A DNA stretch of 32,000 nt from Halogeometricum borinquense DSM 11551 (GTDB lineage Archaea > Halobacteriota > Halobacteria > Halobacteriales > Haloferacaceae). The DNA lies in NCBI RefSeq assembly GCF_000172995.2, contig NC_014729.1, positions 1,290,001-1,322,000 of the forward strand, written 5' to 3'. This document shows, piece after piece, positions 4,777 through 28,889 of the stretch. How positions within the stretch are numbered: the stretch's first letter is position 1; every line of letters begins with the position of its first letter. The notes beneath the pieces are model-generated. The model was not told where the DNA came from. It saw only the letters and a list, made by a program, of their open reading frames with translations, and did not search any database. A program made the position numbers and the translations under genes.

Positions 4777-4841
4777 CGTAATGCGATTACGCAATCGGCA
4801 ATCAGGACGTACGCCGGTATCTTTAAGTTTAACCGGCAAAT

Positions 4842-5240
4842 AGTTGCAGGTGACGCTTCGCTTTGGAGGGCCGAAGCGTCAGCGGGGACCAATTCAGGGC
4901 GGCAAGCATCCACGCGATTTTCGCGTGGCTTGCTTCCTTTTCCACGAACTCACACCGGTGAGCGACTGCTTCGTTCTGTCCCACATTCGACGCTCATACT
5001 CATCCCGTAGAAAACATTTCACCGCGAGAGACACTCATCTTCTACAGCTATTTCACACATCAAAGAGATGACGGCGGCGGGGTGTCCGATAGTTTGTCCC
5101 GTGGTGACTACGTGTCGATTAAATAACAGAAGTTTGACAGTGTTGCGGTAGCGAACACGACAAAAAGAGAAACCATACTTTTTATTACATTAATCATCAA
5201 ACGGAAGCTTCAGATTCCGCCTGCATACTCTCAGTTTGTA
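4842..5240 (+). mobile_element. Degenerate third copy (C) of the structured non-autonomous element family; the 3' boundary is uncertain
   Basis: The 5' end AGTTGCAGG aligns with AGGTTGAACAGG of copy B. Two hairpins follow: GACGCTTCG/CGAAGCGTC at 4851..4879 and CCACGCG/CGCGTGG at about 4910..4928. Next come CTTTTCC...GGTGAGCG, as in copy B, and CCCGTGGTGACTAC, which matches B's ACCGTGGGACTAC. No intact right-end hairpin is present. The region is AT-rich and has no credible ORF. Confidence 0.35.
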
Positions 5241-5299
5241 CGACCTAGCTCCGATATGTTTATTTCAATCAGACAATAAGGGGTGAATTGAATCTACCA

Positions 5300-5596
5300 A
5301 TGTACGACTTGACAGGATTTCAGCGAGACCTACTGTACGTTATTGCCGGGTTGGACGAACCTCACGGGCTTGCTATCAAAGAGGAACTCGAAGATTACTA
5401 CGAGAAGGAAATTCACCACGGGCGACTCTATCCGAATCTCGATACGCTTGTCGAAAAAGGACTCATCGAGAAGGGGCAACGTGACAGACGGACTAACTAT
5501 TACACGTTGACGCGTCGGGGGCGCAGAGAGATAAAGGCACGAAAGGAATGGGAGGGGGACTACATCGATATCGAGTACGGTGGCGTCCGAATCTAA
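5300..5596 (+). CDS. PadR-family transcriptional regulator
   Basis: Track ORF starts at a TTG at 5288, and I prefer the ATG at 5300 (MYDLTGFQRDLLYVIA). It has a PadR-like winged helix: HGLAIKEELEDYY...HHGRLYPNLDTLVEKGLIEKGQRDRRTNYYTLTRRGRREI. The gene is visibly less GC-rich than its neighbours. Confidence 0.85.
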   Translation: MYDLTGFQRDLLYVIAGLDEPHGLAIKEELEDYYEKEIHHGRLYPNLDTLVEKGLIEKGQRDRRTNYYTLTRRGRREIKARKEWEGDYIDIEYGGVRI

Positions 5597-5628
5597 CCAA
5601 CGACCTGTTTCTCTCACCCAGAACTATC

Positions 5629-6885
5629 TCAGGAAGCAGATGGCCCATCATCTGCTCGATTCGACGTCTCAGCCGACGCTTCCGATGTCACGTCCGACAC
5701 GGCGTCGTCGTCAGCCGCCGGCATCTCGTCTGCACCGGCTACATCGGACTGAACGGACCGATCGACGAGTTCAGAATCGTCCTCGACTGTCGCGGGATCA
5801 ACGGCGTACGGTTGAATCGGGGTTCCCGTCACCAGTTCTGGAAGGACGTACTTGGCGAAGTTAACCACGAGAACCAGAATCATCGGCGCGAAGAAGATGC
5901 CGTACCACCCGAACAGGAGGGGACCGAACGTGTACGCAATCATCACCGCGCCCACGTGGAGCGTCCGGCCGGATACGTACGGTCTGAGGACCAGATCCGG
6001 GATGGTGTCCACAATAACGAACGAGACGGCGATGAAGGCGATAACGAACCAAAACGCGCCGGGGTTCGAGAAGTACGAGACGCCGGCGAGGTAGATCGCA
6101 ACCGGAATGTAGACGAGTTTCATTCCGACGACGGGAATGAGACTGGCGACACCTGCGAGAAGTCCGACGAGTGCGGCGGCAGGAATATACACTCCGTCCG
6201 GGCCGACCATGTTCAGGACCGTGTAGGCGATGACACCGATGGTGCCCGTGAGGACGGCGTTGAGGATATTTCCGAAGAAGATGTTCTTGAAGTCGCGGTC
6301 TACGGCCGTACAGTAGGCTTCCATCACTCCTCTGTCGTCGGCAAAGTTCATCCGGACCCACCGCGCGAACCGGTGGTCGTCGCGCAGGAGGTAGAATGCG
6401 AGAGCGATCATGACGAACAGGTGGACACCACCGACACCGAGAAACGCGAGCGTATCTGCCGCAGAGCCAATCGAAGACAGGATCTGAGAGAGTTCAGACT
6501 CGGTGAGAGACGAGAGTTCAAGCGACAGTATCGTGTTCGGGTCCGTCAGACGGGCGAGTTGGTCAGACGTGATCGGATACCGCGACAAATCAAAGAATCC
6601 GTTGTTCGTGAGCCTCACCAGTTCGTTCACGACGATGGCGAGTGCATAGGCGATGAGAGCCAGCGCCGGGAGGGCGAGCGCAAACAACGCGACGGCAGCA
6701 GCCAAACTGGGCGGGCGAACCCGCCGTTTGATACGGCGGTAGATGGGCCGCGTAGAGTAATAGATGAAGATTCCGAAGACGAACGTGCCGACAAACGAGT
6801 AGAACACGTAGGCGAGGGCCGCTGCGAGGACGAGGCCAATGGCCCACCAGACCATACGCGAACGATCCATGTCGAGGAGGGGCAT
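5629..6885 (-). CDS. AI-2E (PerM/UPF0118) family transporter
   Basis: Polytopic membrane ORF of roughly 7 to 8 hydrophobic segments, with a YSTRPIYRRIKRR loop after the first TM segment and a long acidic C-terminal tail. The start is ambiguous between ATG 6912, 6885 and 6870. The antisense 452-aa ORF is an R-rich shadow. Confidence 0.8.
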   Translation of the reverse strand: MPLLDMDRSRMVWWAIGLVLAAALAYVFYSFVGTFVFGIFIYYSTRPIYRRIKRRVRPPSLAAAVALFALALPALALIAYALAIVVNELVRLTNNGFFDLSRYPITSDQLARLTDPNTILSLELSSLTESELSQILSSIGSAADTLAFLGVGGVHLFVMIALAFYLLRDDHRFARWVRMNFADDRGVMEAYCTAVDRDFKNIFFGNILNAVLTGTIGVIAYTVLNMVGPDGVYIPAAALVGLLAGVASLIPVVGMKLVYIPVAIYLAGVSYFSNPGAFWFVIAFIAVSFVIVDTIPDLVLRPYVSGRTLHVGAVMIAYTFGPLLFGWYGIFFAPMILVLVVNFAKYVLPELVTGTPIQPYAVDPATVEDDSELVDRSVQSDVAGADEMPAADDDAVSDVTSEASAETSNRADDGPSAS

Positions 6886-6988
6886 ACTGCAGAACGGAAC
6901 CCGTGACAGCAAAAGTCTGTCGTGAATCCAACTGATTTTGTCGAACTGCGCGGGGATTTAAAGTCATCTCCCGCCGAACGTGCGAGAG

Positions 6989-27126: not shown

Positions 27127-27926
27127 GGCGGCATCACCGCCGCATCGGCCGTTCGAGCGAAGATTCTCATTAGCTTTCAGTCGCGTCGTTTCGAGGTTAA
27201 GGGTGTCGCTCACTAGACGCGGCCGACAAGCTGCGATTCGAGTCACCGAAATGCCACCTCGGCAAGGTTTCTCGCGGACCGAACACCGACTTACAGCGTG
27301 AGGCACGGTTATCCGTCCATGCCACATAATAGCATGATAACGGGAGAGACGATGACCGACACGATAGCTATCGAAGAACTGCTACGGTACGCCGCCGAGC
27401 GACGACTGCTTCGGGAGGAACTCGACGACGACAGACTCGATACCGACACGATGATCGACGTGGTCCGGCACGGACCTGTCTTGGAGACACTGTACGGTCA
27501 GTCGTTGGATCGGCGAGATGTGGAGGACTCCCTCGGCGTCTCGCGGGCGACGAGTCACCGACTAACCCGGTGGCTGGTCGAGGAGGGACTTGCCGAGCGT
27601 CGGGATGGAACGTTCTCGCTCACCGGCAAGGGAGAAGTGTACGCCGACGAACTCCTCAGACTGGATCGAAACCTCCGTGCCGCAGAGCGGTTGGCTCCAC
27701 TGCTCGACTGCATCTGTGAGACGCACCGCGAGTTCGTGGTGGAACCGTTTGCTGATGCAACGATCACCGAGGCGACGCCGAACGACCCGTATCGACCGGT
27801 CTCGCGCTTTCTCGAACTGCTTGCGGAGAGCGACACGTTCCGCGGGTTCAACACGACGCACGTCGTTCCGCCGGGAACACCCGGAGCCGAAGACCAACTG
27901 TTCGACACGGACGACGCCGAATTTAT

Positions 27927-28442
27927 AGGTTGAACAGGCGCAATACCACGCCGTGAACGGCGTGGATACGCGCCGTCACTTGTGGTGACGGCCACCGTTG
28001 AAATGCTTTTCCGAGTTCCCTACCGTGATGTTTAATTGACAGGTGAGCGTAGTAGCCGGTAGGAATCGGTCGGAACGGAGCGGATTCCGAACTGTCCTTC
28101 GGAGGCGGCCTGTCCGCCCATGTAACGAGGCAGTATCCGAAAGGGCAGTCGGTGAACGCACATTCCAGAAGAGTGTGTCGACGTGCCGACTGCTGAAAGC
28201 GAGCACCACGATACCCCCGACTCCACTGACACCTGCTGGCGTCCCTGTGGCAAAAACAACACCGGGACGCCGTACATGATCAAGGATAGGGGTAACGGCC
28301 ACTTGGCATGGCCAGCAGTCCACCAGTCCAACACCGTGGGACTACCCGTACCCGAAAGGGCTGGTAGTCCGCTGATTGGACTGCGAACCTGAAACTCCCA
28401 CCGCTCGGGATTCCTCCGCGTTCACGCGGAGGAGGATGTCAA
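27927..28442 (+). mobile_element. Copy B of the structured non-autonomous IS200/IS605-like element (516 nt; boundaries +/-1 nt)
   Basis: The left flank is TTAT and the element starts AGGTTGAACAGG. Two perfect left-end hairpins follow: CCACGCCG tgaa CGGCGTGG (27946..27965) and GCCGTCAC ttgtg GTGACGGC (27972..27992). The right-end hairpin is CCTCCGCG ttca CGCGGAGG (28413..28432), followed by AGGATGTCAA. It has no credible ORF, no terminal inverted repeats and no target duplication. It interrupts a gene in frame-neutral fashion. Confidence 0.65.
28316..28442 (+). ncRNA. Putative omega-RNA (reRNA)-like structured module at the right end of copy B (hypothetical)
   Basis: It contains nested perfect helices. 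The outer helix is CAGTCCAA (28324..28331) with TTGGACTG (28376..28383). Inside it, GGACTACC (28339..28346) pairs with GGTAGTCC (28363..28370) and encloses CCC-GAAA-GGG (28351..28360). The terminal hairpin is 28413..28432. Its position and orientation match where TnpB guide-RNA scaffolds lie in IS200/IS605 elements. No expression data are available. Confidence 0.3.
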
Positions 28443-28707
28443 CACTGTTCCGTCGGTTGCCGACCACTTCATTACCGGCGAGAAAATGGCGGCCTCCTTC
28501 GAACGCGGCCACTTGCAACTCCGAACTCGGGAGGCGCTGCCGTACGGGTTAGCGATATTCGACGAACGGGTAGGCGTCGGCGGCTACGACGACGAGACGG
28601 GCACGTTGCGCGTGTTCGTCGATACCGATACCGACGGCGCACGGCGGTGGGCCGAAGGCGTATACGAAATGTATCGGCAGGCCTCGGAACCAGTCAGCGT
28701 AGCGGGC

Positions 28708-28782
28708 GAGTCGAACGATGCGCCAAATGGGTCAAACGACGCACCAGATGAGTCGAACGGTGCGCCAGATGAATCGAACGAC
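28708..28782. repeat. 21-nt tandem repeat, about 3.6 units (GAGTCGAACGATGCGCCAAAT-like)
   Basis: Read directly. The units start at 28708, 28729, 28750 and 28771 (the last is partial). They encode ESNDAPN/GSNDAPD/ESNGAPD/ESND in the acidic tail of the regulator fragment. Confidence 0.85.
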
Positions 28783-28889
28783 ACGGGAACGGCAACCAGC
28801 GCACAGTCAGATGGTGCAACAGCCCCTGATACCTCCGCCGACAGCAGTGGCTGACGAGTCGAGGAACGGGACGGGAGAGAGCGTCGAGT

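Follow-up and report, generated by a model that had tools for sequence, protein, structure and literature searches.

A palindrome-associated transposable element with a conserved omega-RNA-like fold interrupts a regulator gene in Halogeometricum borinquense

We have analyzed a stretch of 32,000 nucleotides (the window) from Halogeometricum borinquense DSM 11551 (contig NC_014729.1, positions 1,290,001 to 1,322,000), in which a gene coding for a transcriptional regulator is interrupted by a complete nonautonomous element of the IS200/IS605 type. The element occupies 516 bp on the + strand (27927..28442), with sharp ends and unrelated flanks in alignments of its copies. Its sequence identifies it as a palindrome-associated transposable element (PATE), a transposase-less derivative of haloarchaeal IS200/IS605 insertion sequences (ISs) of the IS1341/tnpB type. 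The right-hand three quarters of the element correspond to a structured RNA region with a conserved + strand fold of about 380 nt, the core of which is homologous to the RNA of tnpB-linked elements.

The element and the interrupted gene

The interrupted gene (27352..28854, + strand) codes for a regulator of the FilR1/HVO_A0261 type and is split into two parts, 27352-27926 and 28443-28854. In Pfam, the open reading frame (ORF) at 27298-27933 contains the HVO_A0261 N-terminal domain and positions 1-46 of the FilR1 middle domain, while the ORF at 28486-28854 contains positions 65-127 of the latter, with split matches of 22 and 55 bits. Once 27927-28442 is removed, both halves merge into a single contiguous FilR1_middle match that covers 1-127 of the 128 positions at 91.9 bits. 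The resulting junction is in frame (...DDAEF-I-TVPSV...), with the isoleucine codon AT|C spanning it, and homologous regulators on haloarchaeal plasmids align across it in one ungapped piece. As the halves rejoin in frame and the homologs are continuous, we conclude that the 516-bp insertion interrupts the regulator gene.

The target site is TTAT (27923..27926, + strand), which also precedes other copies of the element and would be the target-adjacent motif (TAM) for a TnpB carrying the guide of the element. The final 4 bases, TCAA (28439..28442, + strand), are the shared end of the copies and presumably the right-end cleavage site, and they close a 3′ terminus that reads ...GGATGTCAA. Both ends carry subterminal palindromes. 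On the left, an imperfect palindrome with the core CCACGCCGT-GA-ACGGCGTGG (27937..27974, + strand) is apparent as an inverted repeat that is nearly identical in a tnpB-bearing IS of Haloterrigena, and it is presumed to be the recognition hairpin of TnpA. On the right, the hairpin CCUCCGCG-UUCA-CGCGGAGG (28412..28433, + strand) is seen both as an inverted repeat and through compensatory changes among the copies. Neither inverted terminal repeats nor a target duplication were found at the element, and the flanks GAATTTAT and CACTGTTC share no duplication. It contains no ORF, with stop codons in all three + strand frames, in agreement with an initial annotation of the sequence, which had described here a series of helices that no coding frame explains.

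PATEs were defined in Haloquadratum walsbyi and other haloarchaea (Dyall-Smith et al. 2011, PMC3119063). The element of the window has all of their defining features: no terminal inverted repeats or target duplication, subterminal palindromes at both ends, neither tnpA nor tnpB inside, and mobility. It also resembles the Haloquadratum elements in being transposase free and multicopy, with ends related to those of IS605/IS1341, and copies of its family occur in a Haloquadratum metagenome-assembled genome (MAG; loci L024, L048, and L050). The difference lies in the treatment of PATEs as DNA elements in the earlier work, which describes no conserved RNA fold (PMC3119063).

A blastn search of plasmid records with the insertion gave matches at 146 places in 64 records, all of them haloarchaeal (14 full length), and a pattern scan of a genome collection added at least 120 further loci. 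Among the matches listed, the latter all belong to Halobacteria (Halorubrum, Natrinema, Haloarcula, Halobacterium, Haloquadratum, Natronomonas, Haloferax, and others), except for one Clostridiales MAG contig; none of the at least 120 related loci has tnpB between the ends, and in about 15 a separate tnpB IS is located up to 8 kb away. Ten copies aligned together with their flanks have sharp ends and unrelated flanks, are mostly preceded by TTAT, and all end in ...GGAGGAGGATGTCAA. Among full-length copies from other genomes, 32 of 38 are directly preceded by TTAT, and all 88 copies examined end in CAA (85 in GTCAA, the other 3 in ATCAA or CCAA), with the flank diverging from the next base onward. 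The copies differ by indels whose lengths are not multiples of three. Their neighbors are unrelated, with no conserved accompanying gene, and the copies examined in plasmid records are unannotated DNA.

The initial annotation referred to this element as copy B, implying a second copy in the window, but blastn, nhmmer, and scans with each of the end motifs revealed no other. Two independent short-read assemblies of Hgm. borinquense break off inside the element, at about positions 28182 and 28088 of the window (L135:1-250 and L137:1-155), which hints at more than one genomic copy or at hairpins that disrupt assembly. One of them, contig AOHT01000012.1 (GCA_000337855.1; AOHT denotes Hgm. borinquense, PMC3783009), codes for a 413-amino-acid protein identical to one of the window. 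Many copies elsewhere contain a nested palindromic mini-insert of about 55 to 57 nt, such as TCGTTCGAGAGAGCGTCGCTCTCTCGTGATGACGAAAATCTTGGATTTTCGAACCA, found in L004:2687-2743 (from Natronorubrum aibiense), L008, L001, and about 13 loci besides. A recurrent insertion site lies within the hairpin GGAGG^CGGCC, after position 46 of the profile of the 5′ domain described below, and at least one further site is used; inserts of this kind are missing from the window copy. These mini-inserts resemble the small mobile repeats named SMR-A, whose reported targets in Haloquadratum are the palindromes of PATEs, small nested repeats within the palindromes of some copies being a trait shared by both sets of elements (PMC3119063). 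One copy (L017:6516-6790) is 5′ truncated, beginning in the 3′ strand of helix P3 (GACTGCTGAAAGCG...) and fused to unrelated sequence, and it shows that decayed fragments of the family also persist.

Conserved fold of the RNA region

All the helices listed in the initial annotation are present as exact reverse complements: CGGAA/TTCCG (28071-75/28085-89), GGCGG/CCGCC (28104-08/28114-18), GCAGTCGG/CCGACTGC (28145-52/28186-93), GGCGTCCC/GGGACGCC (28238-45/28264-71), GGCCA/TGGCC (28297-301/28309-13), and a three-tier stem at 28324-28383 (CAGTCCAA/TTGGACTG, GGACTACC/GGTAGTCC, and CCC-GAAA-GGG). The 421-nt stretch folds at -180.9 kcal/mol, with z scores against dinucleotide shuffles of -4.0 on the + strand and -3.4 on the - strand; as both strands fold well, single-sequence folding is only suggestive and counts as weak evidence.

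Covariation was assessed in 61 nonredundant homologs, less than 95% identical to each other and 62 to 90% identical to the window copy, which form three subfamilies. RNAalifold predicted 66 pairs, 30 of them with compensatory double changes. In a structure of 90 pairs, made up of this prediction and the remaining helices of the initial annotation, 91.4% of the cells are paired, compared to 31 to 46% when the 3′ partners are slid by 1 to 3 columns. Compensatory double changes are found at 49 pairs (633 cells), and the covariation score is 0.347 versus 0.176 in shuffled alignments, with none of 500 shuffles reaching the observed values. The helices are thus kept in other copies, and the structure covaries, two of the points on which the initial annotation had made its proposal depend. 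Strong support was obtained for GGCGG/CCGCC and its extension, GCAGTCGG/CCGACTGC and its inner hairpin, the long-range helix ACCCC/GGGGU, GGCGTCCC/GGGACGCC, GGCCA/UGGCC, and the terminal hairpin, in which compensatory GC-to-CG changes occur in 17 of the 61 sequences. The inner tiers of the 28324-28383 hairpin are less well supported, the subfamilies being poorly aligned there by MAFFT; each subfamily on its own folds an equivalent long hairpin in this region, and the architecture is the same in all three. One more long-range helix from RNAalifold, GAUUCC/GGAUGUC (28084-89 with 28434-40), is doubtful, as it competes with hairpin P1 (see below) and both of its sides are invariant and hence untestable by covariation.

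A genome of about 61% GC, and a minus strand that also folds well, would be in line with GC-rich hairpins arising by chance, but the 49 covarying pairs and the outcome of the shuffles leave this explanation a negligible probability. The same applies to a decayed coding remnant, given the stop codons in the three + strand frames, the nontriplet indels, and a tblastn search of the middle of the element that gave only a 23-amino-acid trace of the TnpB C terminus (E = 0.03) and no match at all for 28058-28250. Both versions are refuted by the comparative data. ARAGORN, in turn, found no tRNA-like element.

The first part of the RNA is a PATE-specific 5′ domain of about 148 nt (28061..28208, + strand), recognized by its covariation and by its presence only in copies without tnpB. 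It comprises hairpin P1 (28062-28098, including CGGAA/TTCCG), whose first helix pairs GGA (28062-64) with UCC (28096-98), followed by P2 (GGAGG-GGCGG/CCGCC...UCC) and P3 (GCAGTCGG/CCGACTGC enclosing CACATTC/GAGTGTG). Helices 3 to 7, in this domain, show compensatory changes, and the stretches GGTGAACG and GGUGAACG are invariant. Mean pairwise identity is 0.68 in the 5′ domain and 0.71 in the core, versus 0.48 in the preceding 12 columns. The initial annotation placed the module at 28040-28460; the structured block is there, but 28041-28059 is a poorly conserved spacer and the block begins at about 28061.

The second part is the omega-RNA-like core (28209..28442, + strand), assigned by homology to the region of sense-overlapping transcripts (sotRNAs) or omega-RNAs at the 3′ end of haloarchaeal tnpB genes. 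It is formed by the long-range helix ACCCC/GGGGT, H4 (GGCGTCCC/GGGACGCC), H5 (GGCCA/TGGCC), the three-tier hairpin (28324-28383), and the right-end hairpin. The H4 loop, GGCAAAAACAAC (28249-28260), is invariant in 59 of the 61 sequences, the other 2 having GGCCAAAACAAC, a degree of conservation that is inflated because this motif was itself the pattern by which most loci were found. No complementary pseudoknot partner for the loop was found by eye.

G-U pairs exceed A-C pairs in the 5′ domain (170:32), the core (138:24), and the 3′ end (50:5), about 5:1 outside the poorly aligned hairpin, and this excess indicates that the functional strand is the + strand. IS200/IS605 elements move as the top strand, so the strand with the G-U (or G-T) bias is also the transposing one, and the fold might act as single-stranded DNA (ssDNA), with internal hairpins that compact the element or hold its ends for TnpA and with transcription being incidental; subterminal hairpins are, after all, known TnpA signals. 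We consider this unlikely. The invariant positions are located in interior loops (GGCAAAAACAAC, GGTGAACG, and GGATAGGRGTA), whereas in the published mechanism of IS608, TnpA requires only the subterminal hairpins and the cleavage sites. In addition, the RNA of the homologous stretch of tnpB ISs (sot0042) has been mapped by experiment, and the transcript of a related PATE has a 3′ extension of guide length; both are described below.

Relationship to tnpB-linked and transcribed RNAs

Homology to tnpB-bearing elements covers the left end and the last 190 to 230 nt or so of the element. The final 64 nt (28379-28442) are matched on many haloarchaeal plasmids by genes annotated as "RNA-guided endonuclease TnpB family protein," at their 3′ ends, with the tnpB stop codon about 48 nt before TCAA in four such loci. 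The family profile matches four tnpB IS ends by nhmmer with E values of 1e-24 to 1e-27 over approximately its last 165 to 190 positions, and by eye the shared blocks extend further 5′, to GUAACUCCGAGUC (about 28209 of the window). At its left end, TTAT|AGGTGGAACAGGCGCAATACCACGG..., a tnpB IS of Haloterrigena sp. H1 (L045) hardly differs from the element, and either TTAT or TTAC precedes the tnpB-bearing relatives. This IS (L045:3250-4770), whose right end scores 85.9 bits against sot0042, sits 1.3 kb from a PATE copy (L045:6121-6631) and is a candidate both for the donor lineage and for a source of TnpB in trans. Besides L045, PATE copies and tnpB ISs with related ends share a replicon or strain of other species in L009/L011 (one plasmid) and H23/H52.

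At the Rfam gathering thresholds (88 bits for sot0042 and 50 bits for HgcC), there was no match anywhere in the window. At relaxed thresholds, sot0042 (RF02656) matches 28254-28433 on the + strand (46.9 bits, E = 5.9e-11) and HgcC (RF00062) matches 28364-28450 on the same strand (23.6 bits, E = 0.003), so that the Rfam scan suggested by the initial annotation was positive at the relaxed level only. For comparison, tnpB-linked ends score 81 to 89 bits against sot0042, the transcribed PATE RNA VNG_R6334 scores 76 bits, and another copy of the family of the window element scores 47 bits. With scores below the thresholds, the RNA is related to sot0042 but diverged, and it does not formally belong to that family. 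The RNA sot0042 itself is a sense-overlapping transcript at the 3′ end of a Halobacterium IS1341-type tnpB, now understood as an omega-RNA.

Like the omega-RNAs of TnpB, also called reRNAs (here, the sotRNAs of RF02656 and HgcC of RF00062), the RNA of the window lies at the right end of its element, on the same strand and with the guide position after the element end. It has the same hairpin with a UUCA tetraloop followed by ...GGATGTCAA and the same blocks GUAACUCCGAGUC...GGAUAGGAGUA...UUGGCA; an "RE-like UUCA tetraloop" is a described motif of sotRNAs and HgcC (PMC4615843). It differs in the absence of tnpB in cis, in reaching 47 bits versus a threshold of 88, in a much longer H4 and three-tier hairpin, and in the extra 5′ domain of about 148 nt. 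With the TTAT and TCAA ends, the homology to tnpB ends, and the Rfam matches, the initial proposal of an omega-RNA-like scaffold at an IS200/IS605-type right end, with no nuclease in cis, is well founded. The suspicion that it is larger than known TnpB scaffolds was also correct, as it measures about 382 nt versus the 174 nt of the sot0042 model, owing to the PATE-specific 5′ domain and the longer internal hairpins.

The 5′ domain accompanies the core in every intact copy and is absent from the six tnpB-bearing relatives sampled. Against plasmids, blastn matched it in unannotated DNA only, and Rfam at relaxed thresholds gave nothing credible over it. The H4 loop GGCAAAAACAAC was not seen in the four tnpB IS 3′ ends that were read. 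A full-length parent with the 5′ domain or this loop can be rejected among the matches listed, where every intact element is PATE sized; matches of other sizes are fragments from contig ends, nested inserts, or truncation, and the apparent exception, L017, is the 5′-truncated copy. This conserved, covarying domain, missing from the sampled tnpB-linked relatives, is the one mildly new feature of the element. It also enters the arguments for a distinct RNA class, a possibility put forward in the initial annotation. Such a class would serve a different effector and have borrowed its IS200/IS605 ends: the RNA is more than the 174 nt of the sot0042 model, no Rfam family covers 28061-28208, and the 148-nt domain and invariant H4 loop were found only in elements without tnpB. 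However, the 3′ 230 nt are clearly homologous to tnpB-linked RNAs, there is no conserved neighbor gene, and VNG_R6334 bridges both types, which makes a separate class very improbable. The RNA is rather a diverged relative of a known RNA, carried in a PATE.

Two PATE-derived RNAs, VNG_R6334 and VNG_R0052, have been mapped in Halobacterium salinarum NRC-1 (Gomes-Filho et al. 2015, PMC4615843). Their elements are, like that of the window, fusions of left and right ends without tnpB, and both are transcribed; the RNAs are shorter than that of the window (275 and 99 nt, respectively). VNG_R6334, encoded on pNRC200, has its 5′ end about 26 nt downstream of TTTTAC, a TATA-like box. The family profile matches it over the 5′ domain (E = 2e-5) as well as the core (E = 4e-6), but it lacks P1, most of P3, and the long three-tier hairpin. 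Its element follows TTAC, not TTAT, and ends in TCAA, while the transcript continues to 18 nt beyond TCAA, an extension of guide length. The suggestion in the initial annotation that the RNA reads into the flank as its guide would be borne out by homology, the distant relative VNG_R6334 ending 18 nt past a similar right end.

Overexpression of VNG_R0052 improved growth, and competition for TnpA was speculated (PMC4615843). The RNA could then be a decoy or a regulator, titrating TnpB or TnpA away from autonomous elements or acting at the level of the host, and the family is indeed old and widespread without a cognate tnpB in cis, with a 5′ domain missing from tnpB-linked RNAs. On the other hand, the last 15 nt before the flank junction are strictly conserved, which together with TTAT fits a guide equally well, the whole scaffold would be unnecessary for a decoy, and such a role comes with no known target or binding partner. 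Nothing was found to support exaptation as a regulatory RNA, an option raised in the initial annotation. We regard a decoy or regulatory function as improbable.

A proposed guide scaffold for TnpB in trans

A candidate archaeal TATA box, TTTAAT (28031..28036, + strand), was identified from a conserved motif at a fixed spacing: the copies of subfamily 1 keep GTTTAAG(T/C)GACAGG some 20 nt before the conserved block, from which a variable spacer separates it. Such a box would place the start of transcription at about A28061, just before the first helix. At the other end, the would-be guide, CACTGTTCCGTCGGTTGC (28443..28460, + strand), lies in the flank within the regulator gene and is assigned by position alone.

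Boundaries, family, and the conserved + strand fold are established for this PATE, inserted 3′ of TTAT in the regulator gene. We think it likely that its RNA acts as a guide scaffold for TnpB in trans and aids retention of the element. Following the known TnpB/omega-RNA mechanism and the work of Meers et al. (2023, PMC10055086), transcription from the retained left-end promoter (28031-36) would begin at about 28061, cross the right end, and run on into some 16 to 18 nt of the flank (CACTGTTCCGTCGG...), and a full-length IS at another place in the genome would supply the TnpB that binds the scaffold. The complex would recognize TTAT plus CACTGTTCCGTCGGTT, that is, the empty site, which is present only after precise excision. 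Following excision by TnpA, it would cut the restored site, and recombination with another copy of the chromosome, haloarchaea being polyploid, would reinstate the element. The element would then parasitize TnpA for its movement and TnpB for its retention, which would explain why an elaborate RNA fold is under purifying selection in a noncoding element.

The use of TnpB in trans by the omega-RNAs of PATEs has already been proposed (Meers et al. 2023, PMC10055086). The PATE-like IS605 elements of Geobacillus stearothermophilus (PMC10055086) likewise consist of the ends and an omega-RNA with no protein genes, presumably depend on TnpA and TnpB in trans, and have a TAM that is identical to the transposon target site. 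They are, however, bacterial and unrelated in sequence, and their full-length counterparts have experimental support for TnpB-mediated retention, while the window element is known from sequence. PATEs, their transcription, and the trans-TnpB concept have thus all been published before, and the current picture is unchanged: an orphan-guide PATE is a known kind of element that embodies a known concept and not a new class of RNA.

Several points weigh against the guide scaffold. A tblastn search with four haloarchaeal TnpB proteins found no tnpB in the 32-kb window, where tnpA is missing too, and a 452-amino-acid ORF (5548-6906) considered in the search for tnpB had no match in Pfam; it is this absence of tnpB from the element and the window that makes the element a PATE, or an "orphan." The core reaches only 47 bits where the sot0042 threshold is 88, which leaves it uncertain that a given TnpB would bind it. 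The motif resembling a TATA box is weaker (TTCAA) in subfamily 2. As the elements transpose as the same top strand, the G-U bias cannot separate RNA from ssDNA, and most of the covariation lies between the three subfamilies, which means few independent events. Last, a guide scaffold gives the 5′ domain no role. The explanations based on ssDNA, a decoy or regulator, and another effector are all less well supported than the guide scaffold.

As for the 5′ domain, one can speculate, with more doubt than confidence, that together with the invariant GGCAAAAACAAC loop it is an adaptation specific to "guide-only" elements, kept across many haloarchaeal genera. It could be a promoter-proximal module for folding or stability that replaces processing from the tnpB mRNA, or it could help to out-compete the resident omega-RNA for TnpB or to dock a second partner.

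Two other regions of the window deserve mention. The intergenic region 4838-4928 contains two strong hairpins, GACGCTTCG...CGAAGCGTC and CCACGCGA-ttt-TCGCGTGG, and two haloarchaeal plasmids carry about 57 nt of it (4847-4904) at 90 to 95% identity. This region, which is unrelated to the PATE, may represent a further small mobile repeat. The second region, 5001-6000, is an island of low GC content (0.52 versus about 0.61) with an AT-rich intergenic region, which may be foreign DNA. A small ORF in 5288-5596 codes for a product that, by eye, we take to resemble a winged-helix regulator of the PadR type.

The locus provides a clean natural example of a guide-RNA-only derivative of IS200/IS605, in which the boundaries, the TAM, the putative guide, and the empty-site target can all be read from the sequence. 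The alignment of 61 sequences supplies a covariation-supported structure for a haloarchaeal relative of omega-RNA that falls below the Rfam thresholds, which is useful for annotation, and the locus suggests a test of TnpB borrowing in trans in polyploid archaea. If the 5′ domain and the H4 loop do prove to be an adaptation of guide-only elements, the family would be a dedicated RNA hyperparasite of TnpB and not a decayed IS.

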